From the IMG/VR virus record IMGVR_UViG_3300045988_102084, positions 1 through 15,726 of that record: DNA of 15,726 nt; one strand, written 5' to 3'. Origin of the DNA: a virus. Position numbers and translations under genes: made by a program. Below the pieces are notes generated by a model, which saw only the letters and a list, made by a program, of their open reading frames with translations, was not told the origin of the DNA and made no database searches. Shown in pieces: positions 1 to 15,726 of the stretch (the stretch's first letter is position 1; every line of letters starts with the position of its first letter).

Positions 1-85
1 CAATATTTATATCGCTCCGCGATCCCCCGCCCGACCTAAACCAATAGTTCAAGCCTAGAATAGGCTGAGGTATCGGTTGAGGATA
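1..85. repeat. Left inverted terminal repeat (85 bp); genome terminus and presumed protein-primed replication origin
   Basis: Bases 1-85 are the exact reverse complement of 15642-15726, checked base by base. Identity breaks at 86 versus 15641. It contains a C-rich block (11-36) and an imperfect palindrome (39-78). Confidence 0.95.
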
Positions 86-102
86 AAAATTATAATTAGC
101 TA

Positions 103-131
103 TTGCATTATGTAATATATTGTGATAATAT
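103..131 (+). promoter_or_regulatory. Early sigma-A-type promoter (TTGCAT-17 nt-TAATAT with TGn extension)
   Basis: -35 TTGCAT at 103-108, a 17-nt spacer, and -10 TAATAT at 126-131 preceded by TG at 123-124. It lies 18 nt inside the ITR boundary and about 25 nt upstream of the first gene. Confidence 0.6.
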
Positions 132-156
132 AATAGTGTAAAGAGAGGTGAGAAAC

Positions 157-384
157 ATGGCAGTAAATAAAGATCTAGACTTAATGATAGAAATTATGAA
201 TGCTAAATTATCTGGAAGGTATGAACTGAATTATGATGGTATTTGTTTAAATTTGAAGAAAAAGTATAAAGAGTATTGTATTTATGTTTCTTCTGATGTA
301 CATGATGTATTTGAACGTTTACTTGCTATTGATTCATTTATTACTGGTTTGCATTATTTAAATAGAAAGGACAATGAATTATGA
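157..384 (+). CDS. Early hypothetical protein (75 aa), no recognisable family
   Basis: ORF track 148..384. ATG 157 is preferred because AGGTGA (146-151) sits 5 nt upstream. The stop overlaps the next start (ATGA at 381-384). Confidence 0.6.
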   Translation: MAVNKDLDLMIEIMNAKLSGRYELNYDGICLNLKKKYKEYCIYVSSDVHDVFERLLAIDSFITGLHYLNRKDNEL

Positions 385-662
385 AACACTTTACACATTA
401 TCAGATTGCAAAATTAACAAATGCACAGAGAAAAGCCGAGCTTTTCCAAATGACAGAAGATTGCATTTATATATCACAGAAAAATCACTGTGATATCAAT
501 GCACACGCACGTATTTATTTCGTTCGCGAAAGTTTGACAAATTATTATGATCATAACCCGGTGACGATTTATGATTTTCTACAGATGCAGACCAAACTGG
601 AAACATTGTTTGATCTTATGAGTTGTGGTCTAGTAAGGGAGCAGAAACATGAAGAAGAGTAA
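381..662 (+). CDS. Early hypothetical protein (93 aa), acidic C-terminus, no recognisable family
   Basis: ORF track 381..662. GAAAGGA lies 9 nt upstream of the ATG. ATGA overlap with the upstream gene and a 14-nt overlap with the downstream gene suggest translational coupling. Confidence 0.6.
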   Translation: MKHFTHYQIAKLTNAQRKAELFQMTEDCIYISQKNHCDINAHARIYFVRESLTNYYDHNPVTIYDFLQMQTKLETLFDLMSCGLVREQKHEEE

Positions 663-1077
663 ACCTACAATCAACCTTCGCAATTGCACCATGTTGTTTT
701 TGATCATCTATGCCATTTTGGTTAGTGTCTTGGCTGTTACACTTGGCATCCAGAACGATACGTTCCGGATCCAGTTAAAACATATGCAAGCGGATGTAAG
801 CTGGCTCAAATTTCAATTTGATTTACTTCAGTTTATAACAGACATGTGCATCTTTGTATTTGCCTATGCAATGGCTGTTATAATATATTCCATGAAAGAA
901 AACAGAAAGGAAGGTGAGAATATGAGAGAACCAAGACAAGTAGGCTATGTTGAACTCATCAACGGTAGACCGATTGCCTACACGAATGCAGAACGCATCG
1001 GGGACACGGTGATATTGACATTGCCAAGTGGAAGCACGATCACACTATTGGATGCAGAAATAGGAAGGTGGTTATAG
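649..1077 (+). CDS. Early membrane protein (142 aa) with two predicted transmembrane helices and a 51-aa soluble C-terminal domain
   Basis: ORF track 649..1077. AAGGGAG lies 7 nt upstream of the ATG. Hydrophobic stretches are CTMLFLIIYAILVSVLAVTLGI and ITDMCIFVFAYAMAVIIYSM. A strong in-frame internal SD plus ATG occurs at 922 (see findings). Confidence 0.65.
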   Translation: MKKSKPTINLRNCTMLFLIIYAILVSVLAVTLGIQNDTFRIQLKHMQADVSWLKFQFDLLQFITDMCIFVFAYAMAVIIYSMKENRKEGENMREPRQVGYVELINGRPIAYTNAERIGDTVILTLPSGSTITLLDAEIGRWL

Positions 1078-1078
1078 C

Positions 1079-1273
1079 ATGGATTTTATAGAAGTTTTAG
1101 AATCGCTAAAAACGATTAAAAAATACTGCCAGGAAACGCCGGATTGCAAACAATGTAGACTACATGCTCAAAATGATAATTCTACATGTGGAGTAAGTCC
1201 TACTGGTAGTCTCCCAGCCAGATGGGATTTTGATTTAGAATCGGAAACAATTGTACCAAGTATTTTCAAATAG
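1079..1273 (+). CDS. Small Cys-rich early protein (64 aa), possible zinc-binding (C-x5-C-x2-C-x10-C)
   Basis: ORF track 1079..1273. AAGGTGG lies 7 nt upstream of the ATG. The four cysteines fall in CQETPDCKQCRLHAQNDNSTC. Confidence 0.55.
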   Translation: MDFIEVLESLKTIKKYCQETPDCKQCRLHAQNDNSTCGVSPTGSLPARWDFDLESETIVPSIFK

Positions 1274-1290
1274 AAAGAAGAGGAAACAAG

Positions 1291-1641
1291 ATGAATAAAG
1301 TTATTTTAAGCGGAAGAATTGCAAATGATATCGAATTGATGAAAACAAAATCAGGAAAAAGCGTGATGCGCTTTGCTTTGGCGGTGTCAAAAGACAAGGA
1401 AAAAGCTATTTTTCCAACCATTATTTTGTGGGATAAACAAGCTGAATATGTCGGAAAATACGGGCAAAAAGGCATGCGTGCCATTGTTGAAGGGCATTAT
1501 GACATTCGCAACTCCGAAAGCAAAGGAAAAGTATATGTGAATCACGAGATCAATGCCGAACGAATCGAATTGATCTTTGACAAAAAAGAAGAGCCAAAAG
1601 AAGAAAAAATGTCATTGCAAAATGATGACTTGCCATTTTAA
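1291..1641 (+). CDS. ssb: Single-stranded DNA-binding protein, bacterial OB-fold type with an acidic C-terminal tip
   Basis: The N-terminus MNKVILSGRIANDIELMKTKSGKSVMRFALAV is typical of bacterial/phage SSB OB folds. The C-terminus ends in NDDLPF, resembling the canonical DDDIPF partner-binding tip. GAAGAGGA RBS lies 6 nt upstream. Confidence 0.8.
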   Translation: MNKVILSGRIANDIELMKTKSGKSVMRFALAVSKDKEKAIFPTIILWDKQAEYVGKYGQKGMRAIVEGHYDIRNSESKGKVYVNHEINAERIELIFDKKEEPKEEKMSLQNDDLPF

Positions 1642-1645
1642 AATT

Positions 1646-1671
1646 TAGGCAGAAACATTCTGCCTATTTTT
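1646..1671 (+). terminator. Intrinsic terminator or attenuator after ssb
   Basis: A 9-bp stem (TAGGCAGAA 1646-1654 with TTCTGCCTA 1658-1666), a 3-nt loop, then TTTTT at 1667-1671. No promoter is evident before the downstream terminal-protein gene. Confidence 0.6.
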
Positions 1672-1691
1672 AAAATCGGGAGGTGGTCCAT

Positions 1692-2474
1692 TTGGCTAAG
1701 AAAAAACCAAAATTCAGGAAAAGCTATGAAGATCGAAGAAAACTAGAAAACTATATCAAAAGTGCACGTAGAACCGCGACAATTGCCAGAAAACAAGGCC
1801 AGGAAGTCTATTTTACCGAAGTCAAAACATTATCGGATTTTTCTTCACGTGATGAATTTAATAAATATATCAACAGTATCAAGCGTTTCAACCGGGAAAA
1901 CCGTTATTATGTCAATCGACGAGGTGTAGCCTTTAAAGTGCAGGATATAAAAAAGGCCAATGAACTTATTAAGCAGGAAAACAAGATCCGAAGAAAACAG
2001 CGCAAGCAGATATCCAACTTAAAGCAGACCATAGGCGGGGAATATAACACCGTTAAATTAAACAAGGCGCTGCGCGTGGTAAAAGATGAACGTGAGCGTA
2101 TTTTTGAAGATTTAAGACCGGTGAACATTGAAAGCTACTCATCCGAACAGCAACTAAAAAAGCGCATTTCTAGCTTAAGAAGAAATGTAAGAAATCCGGA
2201 GCTAAAGAACAAGAGACTGCGTGATAATTATTTGAAGGCCTTGCGTAACCAGAGGAAACAGGGCGCTATGACTTCCAAACAATTTAGAGAGATGTCAAAA
2301 AGTATCAAAAGACTTTCTGTATCGGATTTTACAAAATGGTTTTATCAGGAAGAAAGCAGCGTGGATGCCTTCAATTTGTGTTATGTCAATTTCATGGAAA
2401 CCGAGATCAAACAATCCTTTCAAGAAGTAAATACAAGTCTTTCCAAATTTGTTAGAAGGACAGTTAAAAACTAG
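1692..2474 (+). CDS. Terminal protein (phi29 p3-like), the primer for DNA replication
   Basis: ORF track 1683..2474. TTG 1692 is preferred (GGGAGGTGG 5 nt upstream); GTG 1683 is the alternative. At about 260 aa it compares with about 266 aa for phi29 p3. The segment LSDFSSRDEFNKYINSIKRFNRENRYYVNRRGV resembles remembered phi29 p3 LDSFETRAQFNKWKEQASSFTNRANMRYQFEKNAYGV. The stop overlaps the polymerase start (TAGTG). Confidence 0.8.
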   Translation: MAKKKPKFRKSYEDRRKLENYIKSARRTATIARKQGQEVYFTEVKTLSDFSSRDEFNKYINSIKRFNRENRYYVNRRGVAFKVQDIKKANELIKQENKIRRKQRKQISNLKQTIGGEYNTVKLNKALRVVKDERERIFEDLRPVNIESYSSEQQLKKRISSLRRNVRNPELKNKRLRDNYLKALRNQRKQGAMTSKQFREMSKSIKRLSVSDFTKWFYQEESSVDAFNLCYVNFMETEIKQSFQEVNTSLSKFVRRTVKN

Positions 2475-4288
2475 TGAAAGTCTATTCATGTGATTTTGAA
2501 ACCACGACCGACCCTAACGATTGCCGAGTGTGGGCCTGGGGTGCCAGTGAAGTTGGAAAGATAGAACACAAGCTTTTTGGCAATTCAATTGAGACATTCA
2601 TGGAATGGATTGAGGGTAAAAACATAAAATGCTATTTTCACAATCTGGCATTTGACGGTGAGTTTATCATTAGTCATTTGTTGAAAAACGGCTGGAATTA
2701 TTCGAAACATCCAAAAGAAGGATGTTTTCACACGATCATTTCCAATCTGGGACAGTGGTATGCGATTGAAATATATTGGAAAGTCAGGAAAAAACACACG
2801 GTTAAAACGACCATCTGGGATAGTTTGAAGCTGATTCCTTTCAGCGTGCGACAGATCGCGCATGACTTCCATTTACCAATTCGAAAGTTACACCTAGACT
2901 ATGATGCAAACAGAGAACCCGGGCATCTTCTAACTCGGGAAGAAAAAGAATATCTATTTAATGATATTGACATTGTGGCCATGGCTTTGGAGCAGTTGTT
3001 TGATGAAGGCTTTAGCAAGATGACAGCGACAGGTGCCAGCTATAAAGCCTTTAAGGAAAGCCTTGGCGATTCTTTCAATAAACTATATCCGGGTCTAAGT
3101 TTGGAAAGCGATGCTGATATACGCCAGTCGTACAGTGGTGGCTTTGTTTGGGCCAATCCAAAGCACAAGGAAAAGCTGATTTTGAATGGGATGGTATTCG
3201 ATGTAAACAGCCTATATCCATCGCGTATGTATTTCGAATTATTGCCTTATGGATTGCCGACGATCTTTGAAGGCCAGCCAAACCCGGAGATCTTAAAAAC
3301 GCGCCCTTTATGGGTTGCCAATGTCAATTTTGCCTTTGACATCAAAGAAAATCATATACCTTGTATATCACTGGATAAGGTGACCATATACAATGGATCC
3401 AAAGAATACATTGATTCATCCCATGGGGAAGTTGTCAGCATGACACTGACCAGTGTGGACTGGGAACTCATACAACATCAATATGATGTGTATGATGTGT
3501 CTTTCAATGGTGGGTATTATTTTCGTGGCAATGTAGGCGTGGCACGACCCTTTATAGACGAGTGCATGGAAGTCAAGAAAAAAGAAAAAGGTGCCAAGCG
3601 TTTTATCGCAAAACGAAAAATGAACTCTGTGTATGGTAAGTTTGCAACGAATCCGGATGTGACACCAAAAATACCCTATCTTGATGAAGAAGGTGTGCTG
3701 CGGATGAAAGAGCCAAAAATCAAGGTGTGGAATCCGGAAACAGACGAAATCACAGAAGAAATTGATACGGAAATGCGCGATCCAATTTATTTGCCATATG
3801 CAACTTTTGTAACAGCCTACGCACGCAAGTATACGATATTAACCGCCCAGAAAGTAGGAATCGATCGCGTGGCCTATATTGACACTGATTCTATCCATCT
3901 GGTAGGAACGGATGTACCGGATGCGATCAAGGATGACATTGATGATAAAGAACTTGGCTATTGGGGACTGGAAAGCGTATTCAAACGTGCCTATTTTGTA
4001 GGCGCAAAAACCTATATCGAAGAAATTGAAATTTCTTACAATGAATATAATGACAGACAGCGTGCTTTTATCGAAGATCACGATAAGAAGGACAATCTTG
4101 TGTATCTGCTAGACGGTATCGCATACCGTTTGAATGTCAAGTGTGCAGGGATGACGGAAAGTGCCAAGCAGAACATTACATTTGAGACGTTCAAGGTTGG
4201 AACCAGCGTTCCGGGCTGTTTGAAAAAAAGTCATGTGCCGGGCGGTGTTGTATTATACGATGCACAATTCAAGATCAAGAGACGATAG
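2474..4288 (+). CDS. Protein-primed family-B DNA polymerase (phi29 p2-like)
   Basis: GTG start overlaps the terminal-protein stop. Motifs: ExoI YSCDFETTT, ExoII HNLAFDGEFI, ExoIII YLFNDIDIV, motif A DVNSLYPS, motif B KRKMNSVYGKF, motif C YIDTDSIH, and VKCAGM near the C-terminus. It aligns collinearly with the remembered phi29 polymerase. Confidence 0.95.
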   Translation: MKVYSCDFETTTDPNDCRVWAWGASEVGKIEHKLFGNSIETFMEWIEGKNIKCYFHNLAFDGEFIISHLLKNGWNYSKHPKEGCFHTIISNLGQWYAIEIYWKVRKKHTVKTTIWDSLKLIPFSVRQIAHDFHLPIRKLHLDYDANREPGHLLTREEKEYLFNDIDIVAMALEQLFDEGFSKMTATGASYKAFKESLGDSFNKLYPGLSLESDADIRQSYSGGFVWANPKHKEKLILNGMVFDVNSLYPSRMYFELLPYGLPTIFEGQPNPEILKTRPLWVANVNFAFDIKENHIPCISLDKVTIYNGSKEYIDSSHGEVVSMTLTSVDWELIQHQYDVYDVSFNGGYYFRGNVGVARPFIDECMEVKKKEKGAKRFIAKRKMNSVYGKFATNPDVTPKIPYLDEEGVLRMKEPKIKVWNPETDEITEEIDTEMRDPIYLPYATFVTAYARKYTILTAQKVGIDRVAYIDTDSIHLVGTDVPDAIKDDIDDKELGYWGLESVFKRAYFVGAKTYIEEIEISYNEYNDRQRAFIEDHDKKDNLVYLLDGIAYRLNVKCAGMTESAKQNITFETFKVGTSVPGCLKKSHVPGGVVLYDAQFKIKRR

Positions 4289-4303
4289 GAAAGAGGTGAC
4301 AGG

Positions 4304-4492
4304 ATGAAAAATAAAGCCTATGACTATATCAATCAATTTACCAGAGATCACTATAAGCGATATAATATCATCGTGCCAAAGGATGACACCGTTCTAATTG
4401 AAAAGCTGGAAGAATACAAGAAAAAGCATCAGCTTTCAAAATTTGTTCGTTTGTGCATCCGAAGGCAAATTGAAATTGACGAAATGAAATAA
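4304..4492 (+). CDS. Small ribbon-helix-helix (CopG/Arc-like) DNA-binding protein, putative transcription regulator
   Basis: AGGTGA-N4-ATG start. The pattern KRYNIIVPKDDTVLIEKLEEYKKKHQLSKFVRLCIRRQI fits a beta-strand, helix, helix layout (compare CopG KKRLTITLSESVLENLEKMAREMGLSKSAMISVAL). It is the last gene before the late region. Confidence 0.5.
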   Translation: MKNKAYDYINQFTRDHYKRYNIIVPKDDTVLIEKLEEYKKKHQLSKFVRLCIRRQIEIDEMK

Positions 4493-4504
4493 ACATAGTA
4501 TATT
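4476..4504 (+). promoter_or_regulatory. Near-consensus promoter (TTGACG-17 nt-TATATT) straddling the stop codon of the RHH gene
   Basis: -35 TTGACG at 4476-4481, an exact 17-nt spacer, and -10 TATATT at 4499-4504. The predicted transcription start is about 4510-4512. Confidence 0.55.
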
Positions 4505-4510
4505 TATCAC

Positions 4511-4690
4511 GAAGGGGAGCAATTTCAAAATGGTTGCTTGTTCCGGGGTGCATCATGGTGAAACATGCCGGGATAAAATTACACCTCATGCCGTGTCATT
4601 CATTTAATTGCATCCTTTTCAATCTCATCTTTCTTAGTTTTTTCTAAGATCAAAAGCAGAAAGGCGGAAAACGCCTTTTTGTTTTGCTTT
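4511..4690 (+). ncRNA. Candidate structured noncoding RNA (about 170-180 nt) bounded by promoter 4476-4504 and terminator 4652-4690; possible pRNA-like RNA or terminated leader
   Basis: No long + strand ORF; only a 25-codon micro-ORF at 4530-4607.
Helices visible by eye:
- GAAGGGGA 4511-4518 with TCCTTTTC 4613-4620
- GAGCAA 4517-4522 with TTGCTT 4534-4539
- TCCGG 4542-4546 with CCGGG 4568-4572
- GCAT..GGTG 4550-4560 with CACC..ATGC 4582-4591
- TCTTAG 4632-4637 with CTAAGA 4644-4649. Confidence 0.35.
4652..4690 (+). terminator. Intrinsic terminator closing the early region and noncoding unit
   Basis: GGCG 4663-4666 pairs with CGCC 4672-4675 around a GAAAA loop. The stem is extended by A/U pairs (AAAGCAGAAA with TTTTTGTTTTGCTTT), followed by T-runs at 4676-4690. 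Confidence 0.65.
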
Positions 4691-4710
4691 TATGGAAAAT
4701 GTGATATATT
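4684..4710 (+). promoter_or_regulatory. Putative late promoter for the scaffold/capsid genes: extended -10 (TGaTATATT) with a poor or mis-spaced -35
   Basis: TG at 4702-4703 and TATATT at 4705-4710. The only -35-like hexamer, TTGCTT 4684-4689, is 15 nt away and lies in the descending arm of the terminator. The scaffold RBS starts about 13 nt downstream of the -10. Confidence 0.45.
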
Positions 4711-4734
4711 ATTAAATTAAAGAGGTGATACTGA

Positions 4735-5013
4735 ATGACACAAGACGAGATGAACACTCTGATAGGCCAGGTCCTGGAACAGGACGACCGCGCCGAGCGC
4801 TCAACATTACTGGATACGTTACGCGGTGAAGTTGGATTATTGTTTGAAAGCAACGAAACATTGACAACAGAAAACACCGACATAAAAGCCAAGAATGAGC
4901 GACTGGTAGAAGCCAATTCCAGCTTATTCATGAAGGTTGGTTTTGATGCGGAAAAGGCAAAAGAAAAAGAGAAAAAGAACACGAGTGATTTTAACATCAA
5001 GAAAATGTTTTAA
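4735..5013 (+). CDS. Scaffolding protein (phi29 gp7-like)
   Basis: 92 aa, with AGGTGA-N6-ATG. ERSTLLDTLRGEVGLLFESNETLTTENTDIKAKNERLVEANSSLFMKVGF parallels remembered phi29 gp7 [50 protein letters not shown]. It sits immediately upstream of the capsid gene. Confidence 0.8.
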   Translation: MTQDEMNTLIGQVLEQDDRAERSTLLDTLRGEVGLLFESNETLTTENTDIKAKNERLVEANSSLFMKVGFDAEKAKEKEKKNTSDFNIKKMF

Positions 5014-5035
5014 AAAAGAATGGAGATGAAAGAAA

Positions 5036-6385
5036 ATGGCTAAAACAACAGCAAAAGACGTAGCGAAGGCGATTCAGACCAATCTGGGACTGGAAGCTGA
5101 ACCAACTGGACAGCAGGTAGCACATTCTATGTACATGGCCGCATCCGAAAATTTACGTGCCAGCGTGGGCGACCCTTTGGAAACCAATTCACTGGACTTC
5201 ATGAATGGGTTACTTGAATATCCAGAAACACTTGCGACCGAATGGGTGACTTTAGCAACACGCATCGGGCGCACCATTGCGCACAAAAATATTCTTTCCA
5301 ATCGTTTGGCACCATTTAAGATGCAGAACATGCCTTTAGGCTATACGATGGAAGAATACTTTGTCGAAGCAGCCAAAGAGCATGCGTACGATCAGGAAGC
5401 ATCGGAAACAAATGTATTCAAACGTGAATTACCAGACATCAAGACAGCGTTCTACATCGTAAACCGAAAAAGCTTTTATAAGAGTACGGTGACAGACGAT
5501 GACTTGCGTAGTTACTTCGTGACTTGGGATGGTGTCAACAGTTTGATCGCGAAGATCGTGGATAGCTTGTACAATGGTGACAACAGAGATGACTACAATT
5601 ATATGAAGTCCGCCCTTACAACGCATTATGAAAATGGCTTTATGAAGATCATTAACTTAGCAAACGCTGTGACGGACACAGCAAGCGCTAAGGATCTGGC
5701 AAGACAATTGACGATGTATGCATCCATTTTGACTGAACCTCATAATGAGTATAACGCTATGGGCGTAACAAAACAAAATGAATTGGATGATTTGTACATC
5801 ATTCTAACAGCTGAATCCAACAGCTTCTTAAACATTGACTGGTTATCACAGACTTTCCAGCTGGACGTGGCCAACTTCAAAACTCATGTTTTGGTGATTC
5901 CTACACTTCCAGAAACGGACAACGGAAAAGTGGAAGCCATGTTAGTGGATCGTGAGATCTACCGCGTATTTGATCAGAAATACAATGTCAATACACAGTA
6001 CAACGGTGAAGGATTGTACTGGAATTACTGGTTACATCACTGGGAAGGTATTGCCACAAGTCGTTTTGCCAATGCGATTGCCTTTGTAAGCGGCAGTGCT
6101 GAAAACAAGGTGTCAGGTATTACTGTCAATCCGGATGCCATTTCAATCAAAGCGAATGAAGCCAAAAAAGTAAAAATGAGCATCCAGAAAACGGGAATTG
6201 ATGCATCTGTTAATGTAACAGCACAGTCAAGCGATCCAAATATTACAGCTACGATCAATGATGATAAAACAGAAATCACGATCACAGCCAATGAAAGCGC
6301 AGAAGCAGGATTGAAAACAGTGACTGTCAAGGACACGGTGGAAACAAGTGTTCATACGGTGCTTCAAGTTGTCGTTGTAGCGTAA
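5036..6385 (+). CDS. Major capsid protein (phi29 gp8-like) with a C-terminal Ig-like (BIG2-type) domain
   Basis: 449 aa versus 448 aa for phi29 gp8. GLYWNYWLHHWEGIATSRFANAIAFVSG matches remembered gp8 [28 protein letters not shown]. The C-terminal roughly 95 aa (GITVNPDAISIKANEAKKVKMSI...TVTVKD) look like a bacterial Ig-like domain. Confidence 0.92.
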   Translation: MAKTTAKDVAKAIQTNLGLEAEPTGQQVAHSMYMAASENLRASVGDPLETNSLDFMNGLLEYPETLATEWVTLATRIGRTIAHKNILSNRLAPFKMQNMPLGYTMEEYFVEAAKEHAYDQEASETNVFKRELPDIKTAFYIVNRKSFYKSTVTDDDLRSYFVTWDGVNSLIAKIVDSLYNGDNRDDYNYMKSALTTHYENGFMKIINLANAVTDTASAKDLARQLTMYASILTEPHNEYNAMGVTKQNELDDLYIILTAESNSFLNIDWLSQTFQLDVANFKTHVLVIPTLPETDNGKVEAMLVDREIYRVFDQKYNVNTQYNGEGLYWNYWLHHWEGIATSRFANAIAFVSGSAENKVSGITVNPDAISIKANEAKKVKMSIQKTGIDASVNVTAQSSDPNITATINDDKTEITITANESAEAGLKTVTVKDTVETSVHTVLQVVVVA

Positions 6386-6390
6386 AAATA

Positions 6391-6420
6391 AAAAGGGCTT
6401 GCAAAAGCCTTTTTTCTTTT
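6391..6420 (+). terminator. Intrinsic terminator after the capsid gene
   Basis: AAAAGGGCTT 6391-6400 pairs with AAGCCTTTTT around a GCAA tetraloop (6401-6404), followed by a T-rich run to 6420. Confidence 0.75.
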
Positions 6421-6427
6421 CTATAAT
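6399..6427 (+). promoter_or_regulatory. Near-consensus promoter TTGCAA-17 nt-TATAAT, with its -35 built from the terminator loop
   Basis: -35 TTGCAA at 6399-6404, a 17-nt spacer at 6405-6421, and a perfect -10 TATAAT at 6422-6427. The predicted transcription start is about 6433-6435. Confidence 0.6.
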
Positions 6428-6433
6428 AAGGGT

Positions 6434-6560
6434 GTAAGGTATACCAGGCATAATAAGTACACTTACCTTACTTTTACCCCTTTTAAGATATTTGAGTCCT
6501 TTCTAATCGCTTTTGAACCATTGGAAAACAAGAGAGTCACTTGCCAAAAGTGGCTTTTTT
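6434..6560 (+). ncRNA. Candidate small noncoding RNA (about 125 nt) between promoter 6399-6427 and terminator 6533-6560
   Basis: The interval contains no ATG. A perfect 8-bp helix (GTAAGGTA 6434-6441 with TACCTTAC 6464-6471) starts at the predicted 5' end, and a terminator hairpin sits at the 3' end. An alternative pairing, TCGCTTTTG 6507-6515 with CAAAAGTGG 6545-6553, competes with the terminator stem. Confidence 0.35.
6533..6560 (+). terminator. Intrinsic terminator inside the capsid-holin intergenic region
   Basis: GTCACTT 6536-6542 pairs with AAGTGGC 6548-6554 around a GCCAA loop, followed by TTTTTT at 6555-6560. Confidence 0.6.
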
Positions 6561-6569
6561 GTTTATTAT
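6541..6569 (+). promoter_or_regulatory. Promoter for the holin/tail/lysis block (TTGCCA-17 nt-TATTAT), with its -35 inside the terminator hairpin
   Basis: -35 TTGCCA at 6541-6546, a 17-nt spacer, and -10 TATTAT at 6564-6569. The holin RBS follows at 6585-6590. Confidence 0.5.
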
Positions 6570-6594
6570 TAGAATAGAAAAAAGAGGTGATAGC

Positions 6595-6849
6595 ATGGAA
6601 ACAGCAAACGCAGTTGTTCAATTGATTTCTACCGTTGGTTTTCCAATTGTCATGTGTGGCGTCATGGGATATTATGTCAAGTATTTAAATGACGAGCACA
6701 AAGAGGAAATCAGCAAAATAAATGACCAGCATCTAGAAGAAGTCAAAAAATTAACAACGACCATTGAAAACAATACCATTGTCATGGAAAAGCTAAGCGC
6801 AAAAATTGACACCATTTTAGATTTAAAAGGAAGTGATGAAAATGTCTGA
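6595..6849 (+). CDS. Holin-like single-pass membrane protein (BhlA/UviB-like architecture)
   Basis: ATG 6595 has AGGTGA-N4 upstream; the TTG 6541 extension in the ORF track covers the terminator and promoter and is rejected. In 84 aa there is one N-terminal TM (VVQLISTVGFPIVMCGVMGYYV) followed by a charged coiled-coil tail, as in BhlA/UviB-type holins. Confidence 0.5.
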   Translation: METANAVVQLISTVGFPIVMCGVMGYYVKYLNDEHKEEISKINDQHLEEVKKLTTTIENNTIVMEKLSAKIDTILDLKGSDENV

Positions 6850-7993
6850 TCTTACTAAATTTGAACCACTACCAAATGTGGGAAATGTGGTATCAAACAA
6901 CGTAACCGCGTTCAATCAGGGGTATAATTTATATCAATGTATCAATTATCTACAAGGCTATGTTTCCATTGTCTATGAAAATATGGATGCCCTTTTAGAT
7001 GATTGGAATAATTTTCAACAGGTTATAAATGATAACATTTCAAGCATTGCCACAGAAGAAACACAGAGAATTTTAAATCAGTGGCTAGAAGATGGCACAT
7101 TAAACGATCTGATCGCAAAAAATCCTTTATGGAATCAGAAGCTGGACAAGTCAGGCGGAACGATGACAGGGAACATCAAATTTTCCGAAAATACAAAAAT
7201 TGTGGGCACGACACCGGGCGGAAATGATATTGACTTGATTCACAATACCAATGATGGAGCATCTGGAAATTATGTTCAGTTTGGTGACCCGGATGCAAAA
7301 ACAGTCATCAATTCAAGCCAGCAGCCTGTCTGGCATAACGGGGATGATGATTATTCGCTATTGACACAGAAACAGTTGGATGCAGGGCTTTCCGGTAAAG
7401 TCAACAAAGCTGGGGATACGATGACAGGAAACCTAAATTTAAATGCATCCTTGAATTTGAATGGTGCTATTACAAGGGATAATGCTTATAATATTATCAG
7501 TTTGGGTGATACATATACGTGTGTTGGTGATATAAAATATACAACTGTTTTAATTTCGAAAAATGAAGCTGCTTATATTAAATTAAGTTCAGGCGCATTA
7601 TATCCTATTTTATCAGGAAATCTTGTAATAAATAATTTGACTACCGCAAATAGTCAACTTCCTTTATCAGCCAATCAAGGAAAAGTTTTGAATGATAAAT
7701 TAAGTAATCTAATTAAGTTAGGTACTGTTATTGGCGTTGGTAATACGCAATGTTTATATCAAGATGGTAATACATTACGGGGAACACAATCTTTTTCAAG
7801 TCAAAGTTTAAACAATGAAGATTATTTATGCTTTTTAACTTTACAGGCAATTACCGGAACGCCATATAATCAAACGACAGGCATTGCTTATTCTTTTAGC
7901 GGTTCAACAATGAATATAGAAGTTAGAGGTACAGGTTTTGTGAGTGGTCACATTGTCAATGTAAATTATTTACTAGTTAAGGTAGGTGATTAA
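6842..7993 (+). CDS. Tail fibre / receptor-binding protein
   Basis: ATG 6842 lies 8 nt after GGAAG and overlaps the holin stop by 8 nt. Two classic phage fibre motifs are present: KSGGTMTGNIKF and KAGDTMTGNLNL. The distal half is compositionally distinct (about 29% GC). Confidence 0.75.
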   Translation: MSDLTKFEPLPNVGNVVSNNVTAFNQGYNLYQCINYLQGYVSIVYENMDALLDDWNNFQQVINDNISSIATEETQRILNQWLEDGTLNDLIAKNPLWNQKLDKSGGTMTGNIKFSENTKIVGTTPGGNDIDLIHNTNDGASGNYVQFGDPDAKTVINSSQQPVWHNGDDDYSLLTQKQLDAGLSGKVNKAGDTMTGNLNLNASLNLNGAITRDNAYNIISLGDTYTCVGDIKYTTVLISKNEAAYIKLSSGALYPILSGNLVINNLTTANSQLPLSANQGKVLNDKLSNLIKLGTVIGVGNTQCLYQDGNTLRGTQSFSSQSLNNEDYLCFLTLQAITGTPYNQTTGIAYSFSGSTMNIEVRGTGFVSGHIVNVNYLLVKVGD

Positions 7994-7994
7994 A

Positions 7995-8606
7995 ATGATC
8001 TGGTATTTAGATATTAAAGGTGAAAAAATAATGGGTGCGTATTCTGAAAAATTAAATGAATCCATGATTCAAATGGATTTAGAAGATACATTTGATCGAA
8101 CTCGAAATATTTATAAAGATGGTGAAATTGTGCCTATTGATGATAATCAAAGGCGTACAATTTACAATGAAGAAGTATATTTTGAAGAGGAAAACGCATT
8201 ACAAGCCATGATGACAGCCAGTGCTAGAGCTTCATTTTTAAACGAATTGGATGATACTGAAGCGGCTAAACTTTCTTTATGCTATGATTCTTGGACAACA
8301 GGCAAAGCGTATAAGGTGGGCGATCGTGTATTATGTGATGGGAAGTTGTGGAAATGTCGTCAAGCGCATACATCGCAGGAAAACTGGAAACCATCTATCA
8401 ACACAGCCAGTCTATGGGAAGTGATCAATGTAGAAAACGCCGGAACCTTGGAAGATCCAATTCCATACGATCAGACCATGACCGTTTACAATGGAAAATA
8501 TTATCTGGAAGAGGGAATCATCTATAAATGTATTCGTGATTCTGGCCAGCCTTTATATGCAACGTGTGCCAGTTTAGTTGGAAACTATTTTGAGGTTGTA
8601 GAATGA
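7995..8606 (+). CDS. Protein with a CBM5/12-like carbohydrate-binding motif; putative tail accessory or second receptor-binding protein
   Basis: ATG 7995 follows AGGTGA-N5. An alternative ATG at 8031 also follows AGGTGA, with N7. YKVGDRVLCDGKLWKCRQAHTSQENWKPSINTASLWEVI fits the chitin-binding type-3 pattern (Y.vGD.V.y.G..y.C.q.H.s...W.P.....LW). Confidence 0.55.
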   Translation: MIWYLDIKGEKIMGAYSEKLNESMIQMDLEDTFDRTRNIYKDGEIVPIDDNQRRTIYNEEVYFEEENALQAMMTASARASFLNELDDTEAAKLSLCYDSWTTGKAYKVGDRVLCDGKLWKCRQAHTSQENWKPSINTASLWEVINVENAGTLEDPIPYDQTMTVYNGKYYLEEGIIYKCIRDSGQPLYATCASLVGNYFEVVE

Positions 8607-8800
8607 CATGTCAATTTAAAGCCTTGGAAAATATGAACAAACCGGAAGATATTCCATACTCATTGCCGGAAGGACTGGAAAAAGAGTTTTATCAAGAATT
8701 TTACATGCGTTGCATCAAGATCTTTCATGCGCATGGGATGAAGGAACGCGCGGATGTATGCGAACAGAAACTAAAAGAGTTAGGGGACATGTTTTCCTAA
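8603..8800 (+). CDS. Hypothetical protein (65 aa)
   Basis: ORF track 8603..8800, with ATGA overlap onto the upstream stop. The alternative start is ATG 8633. No recognisable motif. Confidence 0.45.
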   Translation: MTCQFKALENMNKPEDIPYSLPEGLEKEFYQEFYMRCIKIFHAHGMKERADVCEQKLKELGDMFS

Positions 8801-8808
8801 CTCTTTTT
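8774..8808 (+). terminator. Hairpin plus T-run overlapping the stop codon of the 65-aa ORF (weak terminator or mRNA-stabilising hairpin)
   Basis: GAGTTAGG 8777-8784 pairs perfectly with CCTAACTC 8796-8803 around an 11-nt loop. The stem is extended by A:T pairs and followed by TTTTT at 8804-8808. No promoter follows before the essential downstream genes. Confidence 0.4.
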
Positions 8809-8827
8809 ATTAGAAAGAGGTGAAACA

Positions 8828-10048
8828 ATGCAGCCAGGACAAACCTTAGTTGCCAAAGATGGAACACAAGTTGTGTTGTGGCCTTTCCCTGTGATGAACA
8901 TCACACAGCTATCCGGCCCGGGATCCTTGAGCCATTGCTGTGGAAATCCGGTAGACTGTGTGGGGCCGACAAATAATTATGACGGGTATGCACCTTGCGA
9001 CTGTCATGAGGTATATAGAGATAATGTAGGTAATACACGTGGTTATACAAGTGATAATGAAGTGTATTATGCCAGTCCTTCAGGAACGGGTTGGGTAAAG
9101 GGATATGTGAGTTTTTCCTTTACGCATAACAACAATCCACCCGCACAGACAAGCTTTAAACAAGGGGAACGCATTACATCCACCGGAACCGCCGGCATGG
9201 TGACCGGGGATCATTGCCACTTAGACCAGGCACCGATTGCTAATGCACAATTAGTCAGCTATGGTGTGACTTGTGCCTTTGGAAACTTGTGTTATGCGCT
9301 TCAAGACAGTGTCAGTCCGGAAACGATCTTTTTTGTTAACGATACCAATATAATAAACAGTCAAGGCTTAAACTTTTCAACCTTTGTGGATGGAACAGAA
9401 CCACCTACACCAGAGCCAACCTATCACACTTTTTTATTGCCAATCGACCCGTTTGGCATCGAATTATTGCCTATTAAGATACAGGATGAAAAACCAACAC
9501 CACCAGAACCAACACCAATTGAATGGATCATACCGGGGGATATCAATAATACAAGACCATTGACCGAAGATGAAGCGTATAACAACTGTCGTGCCTTCTG
9601 GGCATATTTTAAGGCCAAAGGATGGAGCTTAAACGCTGTTTCTGGCATTTTAGGAAACTCATGGCATGAAAGTACAGTGAATCCAAACCGCTGGCAGGGT
9701 GATGATGCATGGCACCAACCGCCGGATTCTTGGGGATATGGACTTGTACAGTGGACACCATATACCAAGATCATTACATGGCTACAAGAGCAGGGTGTCT
9801 ATCCGGATGTTTCAAAATTTGGACAGAGCGAGTGCGACCGCATTCAGTGGGAAATGGAGAACAACCAACAATGGATCGCTACAAGTGCCTATCCGGAGAG
9901 CTTTCGAGCGTTCAGCACGTCAACACGTGACCCGTATGATCTAGCGATCGAATTTTTAGCCAATTATGAACGACCATTTGACCCGAATCAGCCAGAACGT
10001 GGTGATACAGCGTGTATGATTTACAATTATTTACTACAATATGAATGA
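8828..10048 (+). CDS. Tail-associated peptidoglycan hydrolase (phi29 gp13-like): N-terminal M23-like peptidase, Pro/Thr-rich linker, C-terminal phage tail lysozyme domain
   Basis: The C-terminal half matches the remembered gp13 N-terminal lysozyme domain:
- ILGNSWHESTVNPNRWQ versus MLGNMQSESTINPGLWQ
- GYGLVQWTP versus GFGLVQWTP
- FLANYERPFDPNQPERGD versus FLASYERPANPNQPERGD
The N-terminal half has M23-like TGTAGMVTGDHCHLD (HxH) and SHCCGNPVD. AGGTGA-N4-ATG start. Confidence 0.85.
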   Translation: MQPGQTLVAKDGTQVVLWPFPVMNITQLSGPGSLSHCCGNPVDCVGPTNNYDGYAPCDCHEVYRDNVGNTRGYTSDNEVYYASPSGTGWVKGYVSFSFTHNNNPPAQTSFKQGERITSTGTAGMVTGDHCHLDQAPIANAQLVSYGVTCAFGNLCYALQDSVSPETIFFVNDTNIINSQGLNFSTFVDGTEPPTPEPTYHTFLLPIDPFGIELLPIKIQDEKPTPPEPTPIEWIIPGDINNTRPLTEDEAYNNCRAFWAYFKAKGWSLNAVSGILGNSWHESTVNPNRWQGDDAWHQPPDSWGYGLVQWTPYTKIITWLQEQGVYPDVSKFGQSECDRIQWEMENNQQWIATSAYPESFRAFSTSTRDPYDLAIEFLANYERPFDPNQPERGDTACMIYNYLLQYE

Positions 10049-10078
10049 TGTGTTAGAATAAAAGAAAGAGGTGAGAAC

Positions 10079-12280
10079 ATGCCAATCTTAAACAGTCAAT
10101 TTACACCCGATACAAAGATCATATTATTAAAAGGTGTTGAGTGTGATGCTATGAACAATACGTACTGGGGATGTTTCAGCACACCGGAAGAACAGTATAA
10201 TTTTTATATGAACAATTTTGAAAATCAAAAGATAACCTATGATAATTATACATACCAGCGTGCCAATGGTGTCGTTTTGGTCGATGGTGCCTTTGATGAT
10301 CTTAGAACGTATAATTACATGATGTACAGAAATAAAAAGACGGGAAACGGAGCAAAATGGATCTATTGTTTTATCACATCCATTGCCTACGTGTCTGATA
10401 ATGTTACATCAATCCAATTTGAAACGGATGTCATGCAGACATGGCGTTTTGAGATCGAAAAGGATATCCTTCCTAGTTTTGTGGCCTATGAGCATCGTGA
10501 GTTGTGGTACTACAATGAGGAAGGAAAAAGACTACCATGCATCAATACGCAGCCGGAAAACATCGAAATTGGAGATAATTTGGTGTGCCGAAGAAATGCA
10601 AATATAGAAAGCGCACAAGCGGATATCAGTTATATCGTCGTCACGATGACCCAGCACTTTAATCAGGCGGATATCGCGACACTGGAACACGGTGTTCCAA
10701 CACAACTATATCATTACATCTTTCCGTTTGATCTAACGACCGGTGCTGGTATTCAAGATGGCTTTGCTGTATTAAAAGATGGAACGGAAAGCAGATTAAC
10801 CGCCTTCCAAACGATCTATAATCTAATTCGAAACGATGAAAATTTTGTCAATAAATGTTCAAGTATCATCGTAACCAATGCATTATATGGCTTGCATTCC
10901 GAATACGCCGGATCGTATAAACGAATCATAGCCAGACAAGGGTATGATGTTATAAAAGAAGGGGATTATACGTTCTTAATACCTTCCAGCCTTCCATTAA
11001 ATAGCGTGTATTATAATGACACAGCTGCCAGTGTGGAAAGAGAATATACCAACCCTTTCAACATCCTTGCGAATCTGTATTTTTTAAACGAAACAAAATT
11101 GATGTTCAGCCCTTTTAGTTTCAGCGTTTTGTCGAACATGAATGGGACATCGAAAGTGTATCAGCATGAACTATTTGATGATCTAACAAATATACGTTTT
11201 CTGATCGTGGGAAGTATTGACACAAGTAAGGTTGACTATATACCCGAAAATTACAAGGTTAAAAAACAAGAGATTTATGGAAACAATACCCTAAATGCCA
11301 TGAACGATGCGTTTGAAGATGGCTATGAACTATCCTTGCCGATCGTATCAGACTACACCGCGGTCTTGATGCAGACAAGCAAGAACAGCATGAATGTTGG
11401 TGTATCGAATACCATTCGAACGAATGAGACAAGCATGCGCATTGCCAGTGCAACCGGCCAAGCAATGAGCCAGCAAACAGGCATTCAAAATGCGATGCGA
11501 TCACAAATGACCGCCAACAATAATATGTTAAACAGTCAGCTAACGGGCATTCAAAATCAAGTGGCCAACGTTGGTATGTGGTCTGGTCTGGCCGGAAGTC
11601 TTGGAAGTGCAGCCGGAAATTTATTGACCGGAAACCTTGGTGGAGCGGTTGGCTCTCTGATTGGTGGTTTTGCCAATGTGTCAAACACAGCCGCCCAGAT
11701 GCAGGCCAACAATTTGACCATGCAGGCACAGAACGCCAATGCGATGAACAATGCAAGTTTACAGAACAATGCAAACAGCCAGATTACAGCGGTACAAAAT
11801 GCATTAAGAAACACCACGACAAAATACCAGGCCGAAACAAATATTCAAAATGCGATTGAAAGCTATCAGGCCAAAATTCACGATGCAAACGCGACAGCCG
11901 ACAGCATTGTAAGTGGTGGATCCAATATTTACAGGGTGATTTCCTTAGGCTTGCAGACGCCTATATTATTTATCTACACGCCAACCGATGAGTATATCCA
12001 AAGAGCCAGCCAAGTATTCAATGTGCGTGGATATTCAACCAACTTGACCAAGATGCCAAACTTACACACCCGACAATATTGGAACTATATTCAGACGGTA
12101 AAAGTCAATATGAAAGGTGGGGATATCGATCCGCAAGATCTAGAAAAAATCAAGCGTTGTCTGGATAATGGTGTTACCTTATGGCATACCAAAGATATTT
12201 GTGATTACACCAAGGAAAACAGACCATTGAATGACCCACACAACAACGATAAATTTGGAAACCGAAAGGGGGATATTTAA
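10079..12280 (+). CDS. Tail knob protein (phi29 gp9-like) with an expanded internal N/Q-rich and Gly/Ala-rich loop
   Basis: N-terminal WIYCFITSIAYVSDNVTSIQFETDVMQTWRFEI resembles gp9 [33 protein letters not shown]. C-terminal PNLHTRQYWNYIQT...LDNGVTLWHT resembles gp9 PNLRTRKAFNYVQT...FDNGITLWHT. It is 733 aa versus about 599 aa in phi29. Confidence 0.9.
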   Translation: MPILNSQFTPDTKIILLKGVECDAMNNTYWGCFSTPEEQYNFYMNNFENQKITYDNYTYQRANGVVLVDGAFDDLRTYNYMMYRNKKTGNGAKWIYCFITSIAYVSDNVTSIQFETDVMQTWRFEIEKDILPSFVAYEHRELWYYNEEGKRLPCINTQPENIEIGDNLVCRRNANIESAQADISYIVVTMTQHFNQADIATLEHGVPTQLYHYIFPFDLTTGAGIQDGFAVLKDGTESRLTAFQTIYNLIRNDENFVNKCSSIIVTNALYGLHSEYAGSYKRIIARQGYDVIKEGDYTFLIPSSLPLNSVYYNDTAASVEREYTNPFNILANLYFLNETKLMFSPFSFSVLSNMNGTSKVYQHELFDDLTNIRFLIVGSIDTSKVDYIPENYKVKKQEIYGNNTLNAMNDAFEDGYELSLPIVSDYTAVLMQTSKNSMNVGVSNTIRTNETSMRIASATGQAMSQQTGIQNAMRSQMTANNNMLNSQLTGIQNQVANVGMWSGLAGSLGSAAGNLLTGNLGGAVGSLIGGFANVSNTAAQMQANNLTMQAQNANAMNNASLQNNANSQITAVQNALRNTTTKYQAETNIQNAIESYQAKIHDANATADSIVSGGSNIYRVISLGLQTPILFIYTPTDEYIQRASQVFNVRGYSTNLTKMPNLHTRQYWNYIQTVKVNMKGGDIDPQDLEKIKRCLDNGVTLWHTKDICDYTKENRPLNDPHNNDKFGNRKGDI

Positions 12281-13168
12281 ATGTTACCAACCGATTTTAT
12301 ATGTGATGAAAAGACAAGCCTTGAACAACTATACCTAAGCTATCTTTTCAATATATCATTGAATATGTTTGAATATTCAGACATGCCGAAAAGCGTGGAC
12401 ACGTTTTATTTGGAATTTATCATGCAGACAAGAGGACTATGCATCATTATTGATGATGAACGTTTTGGCCCGACCGCCTTAGAATGTACCATAGGTGGAA
12501 AGATCAATCATTATTACATGCCGACCGCCTATCGTGGCGTGGATCCAACGGGTGAATTGACTGGTACATATAACGCGGAGGATGTGATTTTGTTTAAAAA
12601 CTCCCCTTTATATGCACCTTTACTACCTCAATTGCAATACTATGCCAAACAGCTGGCACTTGCTGCCGAGACCATCAATGTCAATCTGGATGCACAATGG
12701 ACACCCTACATCATCCAAGGGGATAAACGCATGTTAAACCAGTTCAATAATTTTATGAAAAAGGTGCGAGCTGGTGTACGTGCGATCTTCACCGCTAAAA
12801 ACCTGGATTTAATGAGCATGCTACAAGTGCTGCCGACACAGGCGCCATTCGTGGCCATGGATGTCAATGATGTCAAACAGACCATTCTAAGAGAGTGCAT
12901 GACATTCTTAGGCATTGACAATGCCAACCAAGACAAGAGAGAACGTGTACAGAGTGCTGAAGTCTATGCCAATAATACACAGATCATTGCATCGAGAAAT
13001 ATCTGGCTGGCCGAACGTCAAAAAGCGGTGGATGCGTTCAATCAGAAATTTGGAACCAATGTAAAAGTGAGTTTTCGAGCGTATAATGATATGCTGGACA
13101 TGATGGAAGTTAACGACATGAGCCTAGAAGAAATGGCCGGTCTGGAAGAAGGTGATGAAAATGTATAG
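12281..13168 (+). CDS. Portal / head-tail connector (phi29 gp10-like upper collar)
   Basis: ILRECMTFLGIDNANQDKRERVQSAEV...FGTNVKVSFR parallels remembered gp10 [27 protein letters not shown]...YGLNVKVKFR. The ATG directly abuts the tail-knob stop (TAAATG). Confidence 0.9.
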   Translation: MLPTDFICDEKTSLEQLYLSYLFNISLNMFEYSDMPKSVDTFYLEFIMQTRGLCIIIDDERFGPTALECTIGGKINHYYMPTAYRGVDPTGELTGTYNAEDVILFKNSPLYAPLLPQLQYYAKQLALAAETINVNLDAQWTPYIIQGDKRMLNQFNNFMKKVRAGVRAIFTAKNLDLMSMLQVLPTQAPFVAMDVNDVKQTILRECMTFLGIDNANQDKRERVQSAEVYANNTQIIASRNIWLAERQKAVDAFNQKFGTNVKVSFRAYNDMLDMMEVNDMSLEEMAGLEEGDENV

Positions 13169-13886
13169 ACCATTTAAACCGTGCCTTGTGTCTGTGACGG
13201 GCGCCAAATACACAGAAACGATACAAGGCGTATGCTATACGCTGTGTCATAAAGAGATCATTGAAAGCGGATATACATTGACGGATGATGAAATATTAGA
13301 GTTGGCCAGACCTAAAATTTTTGATTTTGACTACCAATTCTATACTGAAGATATGATCAATGAAAAAGGCTATGTATCGAAAAAAGATCTGGAAACGGGT
13401 ATCTTGAATCATTTTTTCTTTGATGAAATAGGGCAAGAGACCTATGCCTACTGGAAAAGAGAATTGAAACACTGGATGATCATAAACATGCCACGTTATT
13501 TCAGCTTATTCAAGACCATTCCTTTTCAGGACCAGGAAAACCCGACTTTCAATACCAGTTATGATGAAGAATATACACGTCAAAATACAGGCAGTTCTTC
13601 CAGTTCTGGAAAAGACAAGGCAACCAATTTGACAAGTTCCACGCCGCAAGGTCGATTGGATCTTGAAGGAACCAACTACGTGGACACTATCGTACAGCAA
13701 ATTAGTGAGCCTGGCAGCAAGAGCGAAAGCGATTCGAATGAAGATTATAAATTTCATCGTGAGGGAAACATTGGTGTACAGACCTTGGCCGAAGTGTTGC
13801 AAGGCTCAAGAGATGCGATCATAACGATTGAAACCAATCTATATGATGAAATGCTAGACTATGGTTTATTCTATAACATTTACTAG
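13161..13886 (+). CDS. Lower collar protein (phi29 gp11-like)
   Basis: ATG 13161 follows AGGTGA-N5 and overlaps the portal stop by 8 nt. It sits immediately after the portal. The core FDFDYQFYTED...LETGILNHFFFDEIGQETYAYWKRELKHWMIINMPRY is typical of picovirus lower-collar proteins. Confidence 0.7.
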   Translation: MYRPFKPCLVSVTGAKYTETIQGVCYTLCHKEIIESGYTLTDDEILELARPKIFDFDYQFYTEDMINEKGYVSKKDLETGILNHFFFDEIGQETYAYWKRELKHWMIINMPRYFSLFKTIPFQDQENPTFNTSYDEEYTRQNTGSSSSSGKDKATNLTSSTPQGRLDLEGTNYVDTIVQQISEPGSKSESDSNEDYKFHREGNIGVQTLAEVLQGSRDAIITIETNLYDEMLDYGLFYNIY

Positions 13887-13900
13887 AAGAAGGTGAGATA

Positions 13901-15672: not shown

Positions 15673-15726
15673 GCTTGAACTATTGGTTTAGGTCGGGCGG
15701 GGGATCGCGGAGCGATATAAATATTG
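15642..15726. repeat. Right inverted terminal repeat (85 bp); genome terminus and presumed protein-primed replication origin
   Basis: Exact reverse complement of 1-85. It overlaps the last 31 nt, including the TAG stop at 15670-15672, of the packaging ATPase ORF. Confidence 0.95.

Follow-up and report, generated by a model that had tools for sequence, protein, structure and literature searches.

Between the major capsid and holin genes of an uncultured gut phi29-like podophage (IMG/VR record IMGVR_UViG_3300045988_102084, positions 1 to 15,726; the whole of this 15,726-nucleotide (nt) stretch is hereafter the window), positions 6399-6562 hold a compact cassette. We read it, with moderate confidence, as a small, independently transcribed non-coding RNA gene of ~127 nt with a pairing strand aimed at Shine-Dalgarno regions. 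The cassette had been picked out from the letters of the window (the original prediction) as specifying either a stand-alone small RNA, possibly comparable to the prohead (packaging) RNA (pRNA) of phi29, or a regulated leader of the downstream operon. The observation is real, and comparison with relatives indicates that the cassette is functional and best read as a small RNA gene. The stand-alone RNA is favored by conserved promoter and terminator framing, purifying selection, non-coding character and a unit of the same design in 74 distant relatives. An accessory small-RNA module appears to follow the capsid gene directly in most gut phi29-like phages of this group, and the window cassette would be its local, longer form. 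We found no description of this RNA family in Rfam or in full-text literature searches.

Anatomy of the cassette

The capsid transcript would end at an intrinsic terminator (T1), recovered by a terminator scan as a hairpin plus T-run, whose loop carries the -35 element of a conserved promoter (P1; coordinates of all features are given in Table 1). Both had been described correctly. Initiation from P1 is predicted near 6434 and termination near 6560, at a second terminator (T2), which would yield the ~127-nt RNA. T2 was part of the original prediction; it is missing from the list of a simple terminator scan but folds as a stable extended hairpin, and its stem is followed by UUUUUUGUUU (U6-G-U3). 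The promoter said to be embedded in T2 (P2) was found as well and would restart the mRNA of the holin and tail genes. Judged by their letters, T1 and T2 have the features of intrinsic terminators and P1 and P2 those of sigma-A/sigma-70 promoters with 16-18-nt spacing. The T1/P1 module is similar to the T2/P2 module.

The predicted RNA comprises a 5' stem-loop (SL1), a C/U-rich single strand of ~27-34 nt, a second stem-loop (SL2) and the terminator hairpin. The perfect 8-bp helix claimed for its 5' end exists, although the 3' arm lies at 6465-6472 and not at 6464-6471. SL2 is weakened in the window by C6510, where relatives have G and a 12-bp stem. As a whole, the RNA folds better than its own shuffles (z = -2.7). 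Promoter-like hexamer pairs are frequent by chance in this A+T-rich DNA (72 in the window vs. 53 +/- 8 in shuffles), so a promoter scan by itself proves nothing and the case must be made by comparison with relatives.

A similar arrangement stands elsewhere in the window, at 1615-1666, just 5' of an open reading frame (ORF) of 263 amino acids (aa). There a promoter-like TTGCAA-18-TAAAAT is followed at once by a hairpin and T-run (1646-1666), a combination that resembles P1/SL1.

Conservation in the close clade

A first set of nine sequences with 93-98% capsid identity all carry the whole cassette, and later clade members raised the total to 14 distinct variants. Among the nine, the -35 and -10 elements of P1 and the -10 of P2 are invariant, as are T1 positions 6401-6415; the -35 of P2 keeps TTGC and varies only at positions 5-6, and both 17-nt spacers are preserved. 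Mean pairwise diversity is 0.068 in the intergenic region. In the flanking genes it reaches 0.33 at four-fold degenerate sites, and third codon positions within the neighboring 300 nt give 0.24. By this comparison of sequences, the cassette is about five-fold more conserved than neutral sites and is under purifying selection. Diversity is 0.041 at 6500-6529, 0.045 in T2 and 0.04 over 6500-6560, with 0-0.08 across segments of 6500-6535 and none at all in 6521-6535 and 6551-6565. The linker is the most variable segment, at 0.16-0.21 (0.21 for 6476-6490).

The consensus fold of the clade consists of SL1, a long unpaired linker, SL2 and T2, and variable columns are rarer in its paired positions (8/70) than in its unpaired ones (24/60; p = 2e-4). 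Single changes within stems convert U.G to C-G or U-A. A U.G pair of T2 has become C-G in two variants (L003 and L126), and a third (L117), which has lost the top of SL2, retains the base helix with U.G changed to U-A; yet another (L118) lacks AUAUUUGAGUCC. Given these two deletions, what stays constant is SL1, the first part of the linker, the SL2 base, GGAAAACAAGAGAG and T2/P2. The G.U pairs within SL2 and T2 are consistent with an RNA made from the + strand.

We considered and rejected a small protein encoded on the + strand. Although frame 0 is open, it lacks a start codon, and indels among relatives, whose RNAs range from 125 to 130 nt, break it; the absence of any ATG, already remarked in the original prediction, was confirmed on the + strand over 6428-6594. 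The length differences and the missing start codon exclude a peptide, and the RNA is non-coding. Coding on the minus strand was also discarded: the motif of the linker reads there as AAAGGAGG-N5/6-ATG, but the ORFs have just 4-9 codons and are unconserved. A convincing promoter was not seen on the minus strand.

The same alignments bear on the proposal of a regulated leader, in which an alternative fold or a bound factor would decide whether P1 transcripts terminate at T2 or continue into the holin gene. Its layout of promoter, ~125-nt leader, terminator and gene is the one found here, and the linker is able to pair with the ribosome-binding site (RBS) of the holin gene (AAAAAGAGG) with one bulged C. 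The 9-bp pairing of 6507-6515 with 6545-6553, offered as a competitor of the terminator stem, is present in the window with two G.U pairs, but it is not kept in relatives. Position 6510, C in the window, is G in all eight relatives first compared and in every later clade variant retaining the segment, and 6545/6546 vary. Furthermore, 6507-6515 lies within the more stable and conserved SL2, no Rfam family matches, and P2 is conserved 3' of T2, so that any attenuation would be bypassed. In the distant phages described below, linker and holin RBS do not covary, and the motif of the linker stays the same in front of a gene with another RBS. We regard a regulated leader as quite improbable. Cis pairing with the holin RBS was rejected as a mode of action in its own right, as it needs the bulged C, does not covary and leaves the motif unchanged where another gene follows.

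Units of the same design in distant relatives

We collected 74 IMG/VR contigs with 63-67% capsid identity via a capsid profile (L038-L111). All 74 have an 85-110-nt unit directly 3' of the capsid stop codon (e.g., L053:6460-6566), in which a -10 box (mostly TGnTATAAT) is followed by ~6 bases, a 5' hairpin, unpaired CCUCCUUUCUAU, a small variable hairpin, a terminator and a new promoter; single-sequence folds are consistent with this layout. The 5' hairpin reads GGUGUCAUG-AGUAGGA-CAUGACACC in type I units and GGAC-AUUGA-GUCC in type II, L073 has yet another, and in L007 GGAC/GUCC has changed to GGAU/AUCC. Across clades, the 5' hairpin at the post-capsid site has four unrelated sequences, and between types the hairpin is swapped wholesale. 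The distant terminator helix shows four compensated pairs, and its eight G.U vs. zero A.C on the + strand run contrary to a minus-strand reading.

CCUCC or CCUCCUU lies in the single strand of 69 of the 74 distant units, and 60 have the 10-nt CCTCCTTTCT (RNA: CCUCCUUUCU). On the + strand of 937 kb of sequence there are 69 copies of the 7-mer CCTCCTT, every one at the post-capsid site, while the CCTCC pentamer is not depleted elsewhere on that strand (98 copies elsewhere). CCUCCUUUCU is the mature 3' tail of Bacillus subtilis 16S rRNA (GAUCACCUCCUUUCU), and the same tail is taken for clostridia (PMC5732282; PMC3025663). In 13 of the 14 close-clade variants, the linker opens with unpaired CCUCCUUUU right after SL1, and this site is the sole + strand CCUCC in each of six clade genomes checked. 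An anti-Shine-Dalgarno sequence thus occupies the unpaired region between stem-loops in 13/14 clade variants and 69/74 distant units, though not in the window itself. The window-clade cassette and the distant units agree in position, framing, order of parts and motif.

The distant type I and II units have their own -10 just past the capsid stop and use the terminator of the capsid gene. A -10 equivalent to P1, often TGnTATAAT, also lies 3' of the capsid stop in a further clade with 70-72% capsid identity, and P1 is the ancestral promoter of the capsid-holin junction. Small RNAs of the DapZ/MicL type arise from 3' untranslated regions through a promoter of their own. The distant units resemble them in having their own -10 past the capsid stop and a shared capsid terminator, whereas the window clade differs in that the extra terminator T1 separates the unit from the capsid mRNA, which would make the unit fully independent.

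In type I and II phages the -35 of the downstream promoter (L053:6567-6640 and equivalents) sits inside a perfect 18-bp palindrome, TAGTTGAACATTCAACTA, which could be an operator. This suits a further reading, in which the inverted repeats of SL2 and the T2 stem are regulator sites that time the holin/tail promoter at the DNA level, like p4 at the phi29 late promoter. In the window, SL2 forms an imperfect 12-bp inverted repeat centered ~62 bp 5' of the P2 start, a typical activator distance, and the T2 stem spans the -35 of P2; conservation alone does not separate constraint on DNA from constraint on RNA. However, the mismatches between arms are G.U-compatible, stem changes run from U.G to U-A or C-G as for RNA, and the SL2 core occurs only once within the window. 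Control at the DNA level also gives no role to single-stranded CCUCCUU or to the promoter/terminator framing. We consider it improbable.

Predicted mode of action and candidate target

If the small RNA acts by pairing, its exposed anti-Shine-Dalgarno sequence (CCUCCUUUCU in most phages, CCUCCUUUU in this clade) would bind purine-rich RBS regions and keep the mRNA from being translated. The first early gene, through its 5' leader and Shine-Dalgarno sequence, is the strongest candidate target. In three relatives (L001, L003 and L004), 12 bp with one G.U can form between the linker, CCUCCUUUUUAC (CCUCCUUUUU(A/G)C), and GUAAAGAGGAGG, the extreme 5' end plus the Shine-Dalgarno sequence of that gene; the L001-type leader reads GUGUAAAGAGGAGGACAC...AUG. 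The predicted duplexes, at -19 to -21 kcal/mol, rank first among 23-26 RBSs. The homologous leader of the distant phages, GUGUAAAGA(A)GGAGGG, is in the top three in 33 of 47 loci, which are mutually related and have approximate gene calls. A second recurrent predicted partner is the scaffold gene site, AUAGAAGGGA with UCCUUUCUAU.

Shine-Dalgarno classes were compared in the window and L038-L111. Late genes (capsid, holin and tail knob) mostly use AGAGGUGAU, and early genes AAGGAGGG or AAAGGGGG. The predicted pairing with the 16S tail is -13.0 kcal/mol for late vs. -10.7 for early genes, and it exceeds pairing with the small RNA by 3.1 kcal/mol at late genes and 1.0 at early ones. Late GAGGUGAU-type sites pair with an upstream part of the 16S tail that the small RNA lacks. 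A more speculative idea, which we think rather doubtful, is that a lytic phage uses this RNA family as a mimic of the free 16S rRNA 3' tail (a hairpin, then CCUCCUUUCU) to reprogram translation initiation. The mimic might soak up strong GGAGG-type sites of host and early phage mRNAs, with late genes escaping through GAGGUGAU-type sites that pair with the part of the tail absent from the mimic. Alternatively, a host nuclease or other host factor may attack or bind the anti-Shine-Dalgarno tail, and the RNA might serve it as a decoy. Two related proposals were rejected. Early genes are not preferred targets by mean pairing, which equals that of late genes, and only the margin relative to 16S pairing differs; nor do the phages avoid GGAGG in their own genes, several of which use it.

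Known regulators offer partial parallels. RsaE/RoxS-type small RNAs of Firmicutes are hairpin-rich and terminator-ended, and their unpaired C-rich motifs (CCCC/UCCC) pair with G-rich RBSs. The distant units differ from them in the 10-nt copy of the 16S tail, in genetic context and in having no detectable homology. The T4 endoribonuclease RegB targets GGAG in the Shine-Dalgarno sequences of early mRNAs and switches off early translation; the analogy would be functional only, as RegB is a protein nuclease and an antisense-like RNA is proposed here. The cia-dependent small RNAs (csRNAs) of Streptococcus have stem-loops flanking an unpaired anti-Shine-Dalgarno stretch, and their C-rich strand is the working part (PMC3091779). 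They share with the units described here a length of 87-151 nt, an own promoter, an intrinsic terminator and a proposed block of translation initiation. The post-capsid RNA differs from csRNAs in being phage-encoded, in showing no sequence or model similarity to them (Rfam) and in having only a predicted target. The window copy lacks CCUCC, and the CAU "anti-start" of the distant units lies within the SL1 stem or loop rather than in the free strand.

Patchy distribution and counter-evidence

Several observations weigh against the small RNA reading or narrow its reach. In the close clade, none of 35 predicted pairs shows a compensatory double change. The covariance search proposed at the outset thus gave no compensated pairs there, although changes did fall mainly at unpaired positions, and the structure of the clade RNA stands on conservation and on the placement of changes. 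The window itself reads CCUUAC in place of CCUCC and has no CCUCC. Its lineage comprises seven contigs with identical capsid protein, and the one retrieved (L116) has an intergenic region identical to the window's. The change to CCUUAC lengthens SL1, which makes the perfect 8-bp helix a derived peculiarity of this lineage, and the window's copy may be weakened or retargeted. In addition, a covariance model of type I units found type II units (E 7e-6 to 0.01; 45 to 28 bits) and missed the window-clade cassette. Common descent is thus unproven, and the link between the two is one of position and design.

The cassette is also unevenly distributed. A relative with 86% capsid identity (L113) lacks it and has a single terminator-with-promoter module in a 66-nt intergenic region (L113:7009-7074), with TTGAAA in the terminator loop followed by TATATT. 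The 70-72% clade (L005 and L006; L114:6675-6746) lacks it too; there, T1 and a TGnTATAAT promoter are followed by a short hairpin leader that runs directly into the holin gene. Conservation in syntenic relatives, named originally as a test, therefore holds for the close clade and fails in these two branches. Their lack of the cassette marks it as dispensable and accessory, and the module was probably exchanged by recombination.

The target prediction transfers poorly to the window. Its first-gene leader, GAGAGGUGAG, and its seed both differ from those of relatives, and its RNA pairs only weakly with its own early leader (-14.3 kcal/mol), partly through bases buried in SL1. A relative's RNA pairs better with the window leader than the window's own RNA does, so we rejected a compensatory co-change of seed and leader in the window. 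Mean small-RNA pairing does not differ between early and late genes (-9.7 vs. -9.9), and any anti-Shine-Dalgarno sequence pairs with many RBSs. By our own estimate, a 12-bp match is expected by chance ~0.3 times per genome before its position is counted.

The patchy distribution lends itself to a reading as transcriptional punctuation, in which tandem terminator-promoter modules insulate the lysis and tail genes from strong capsid transcription and the P1-T2 transcript is a functionless by-product. The group generally places -35 elements in the loops of terminator hairpins; L113 makes do with a single such module, the 70-72% clade drives the holin gene directly from its TGnTATAAT promoter behind T1, T1/P1 resembles T2/P2, and relatives dispense with the cassette. 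However, the inner sequence is not spacer-like (diversity of 0-0.08 at 6500-6535 vs. 0.33 at neutral sites), hairpin columns are preferentially conserved, and 69 distant contigs repeat the inner design of a 5' hairpin and then CCUCCUU. We therefore hold punctuation to be unlikely, if worth keeping in mind.

The post-capsid RNA is not the pRNA

A length of ~120 nt, a phi29-like phage and bounds set by a promoter and a terminator made the pRNA a natural comparison, and the post-capsid RNA resembles phi29 pRNA in phage group, approximate length and being a discrete non-coding transcription unit. It shows none of the structural hallmarks tested, however, and relatives can do without it. It has no end-joining helix and no three-way junction; it folds as three hairpins in a row, with the terminator as its 3' end, and by inspection the loops of SL1 and SL2 are not complementary to each other. 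Nor did a pairing of the SL1 loop (GGCAU) with the D-loop of the pRNA-like RNA described below covary (L003 and L002 differ), and this candidate was rejected.

Rfam searches, whose model set we take to include the pRNA, gave no match to the post-capsid unit. Nothing overlapped 6386-6594 of the window at E <= 1, and four relatives (L003, L005, L007 and L008) gave no matches at the same threshold. Four more (L053, L042, L002 and L073), searched at E <= 5, gave a sole post-capsid overlap, SraG on L042, with 25 bits vs. a gathering score of 50. All matches in the window and the eight related loci (MIR405, ctRNA, caiA, SraG and snoR639) are sub-threshold and at chance level. The cassette is, moreover, absent from relatives that retain packaging genes (L113, L005/L006 and L114/L115). 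L113, L114 and L115 each have the connector on the stretch compared, outside which the ATPase region lies, and the ORF maps of L005/L006 keep the gene order through a last ORF of ~338 aa.

A pRNA-like RNA lies instead at 4511-4620. It has a long helix uniting its 5' and 3' ends, a branched core and a GUGAAA-loop hairpin with a 7-nt bulge, to which the loop of a second hairpin is complementary. Bulge and loop change together, from GCAU/AUGC in the window to GUAU/AUAC in L003, UGCAU/AUGCA in L002 and UUCAUU/AAUGAA in L005, and to AUUACU/AGUAAU or GUUUACU/AGUAAAC in distant phages. Across 33 sequences, 94% of cells pair and 10 pairs show compensatory changes; the observed score was matched by none of 500 shuffles. 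Every relative examined (L001-L007 and ~60 distant loci) has an RNA of this kind in the slot 5' of the scaffold gene, and Rfam models do not detect it. The post-capsid RNA is thus not the pRNA, and we give practically no credence to its being a prohead RNA or a second pRNA.

To our knowledge, the pRNA is the only non-coding RNA for which phi29-like phages are known. A review treats the pRNA as peculiar to Bacillus relatives (PMC11476376). In a large uncultured gut branch of the group, the present comparison suggests a pair of RNAs: one that is pRNA-like and encoded in mid-genome, and an accessory post-capsid small RNA, whose free strand is, in most members, a 10-nt copy of the mRNA-docking tail of the ribosome. 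If the latter acts on Shine-Dalgarno sites, it would give a 16-kb lytic phage a compact, RNA-only switch of its translation program. For annotation, it offers a recognizable RNA family without an Rfam model.

Genomic setting

The window covers most of the genome, and every gene lies on the + strand (Table 1). The ORF of 62-64 aa was also called at the matching position of L113-L118, L120, L122 and L126-L128, and L005-L007 have a comparable short reading frame 5' of the pRNA-like RNA. A scan of the window found no tRNA genes.

Table 1. Features of the window (source: uncultured gut phi29-like podophage), in genome order.
Feature	Position	Strand	Remarks
First early gene leader/RBS	133-159	+	GUGUAAAGAGAGGUGAGAAACAUG; counterpart of the target predicted in relatives
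263-aa ORF	1683-2474	+	Position of a terminal-protein gene; no family match
Protein-primed DNA polymerase	2474-4288	+	
62-aa ORF	4304-4492	+	Directly 3' of the polymerase gene, 5' of the pRNA-like RNA
pRNA-like cassette	4476-4690	+	Promoter 4476-4504, RNA core 4511-4620, terminator 4653-4685; between 62-aa ORF and scaffold gene
Scaffold gene	4735-5013	+	
Major capsid protein gene	5036-6385	+	Pfam Phi29_MCP, E 4e-81; PHROG major head protein; upstream neighbor
T1, predicted intrinsic terminator of the capsid transcript	6390-6420	+	Terminator scan; 11-bp stem, loop GCAA, T-run; hairpin 6390-6415; -11.9 kcal/mol
P1, predicted promoter	6399-6427	+	TTGCAA-17-TATAAT; 10/12 consensus; -35 in T1 loop; predicted start ~6434
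SL1, 5'-terminal hairpin	6434-6472	+	Folding; 6434-6441 paired with 6465-6472
C/U-rich single-stranded linker	6473-6499	+	ACCCCUUUU...GAGUCC; unpaired probability ~0.9
SL2 hairpin	6500-6527	+	Folding; UUUCUAAU...AUUGGAAA
T2, predicted intrinsic terminator of the small RNA	6528-6562	+	15-bp extended hairpin; -17.8 kcal/mol; core 6535-6542 with 6547-6554
P2, predicted promoter for holin/tail genes	6541-6569	+	TTGCCA-17-TATTAT; 10/12 consensus; -35 in T2 loop; predicted start ~6576
Holin gene	6595-6849	+	PHROG holin, E 2e-12; downstream neighbor; RBS AAGAGGTGAT at ~6581-6590
Genes 3' of holin, in order		+	Tail fiber, carbohydrate-binding protein, tail lysozyme, tail knob, connector, further ORFs

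Neither the window region nor a distant-type unit has any DNA match among GenBank phages, whose closest capsid proteins show 30-35% identity. Relatives are plentiful in IMG/VR and in human-gut metagenomes, and the capsid cluster counts 363 members. The sole hint of a host comes from one relative, which had been binned into a Clostridia metagenome-assembled genome.

Two further features of the window were noted in passing. A strong terminator-like hairpin, AAAAGAGUUAGGGG...CCUAACUCUUUUU, stands at 8764-8816 between a 65-aa ORF and the gene for the tail lysozyme, and came to notice only through the spurious, sub-threshold Rfam match to MIR405. The non-coding left end (1-147 in the window; L003:1-500) holds repeated TCGCTnnGCGATC-like motifs, with one copy in the window (~11-26) and four in L003, and the window is apparently short of ~400 nt of left end present in L003. 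These repeats could be sites related to the origin or to terminal-protein priming.

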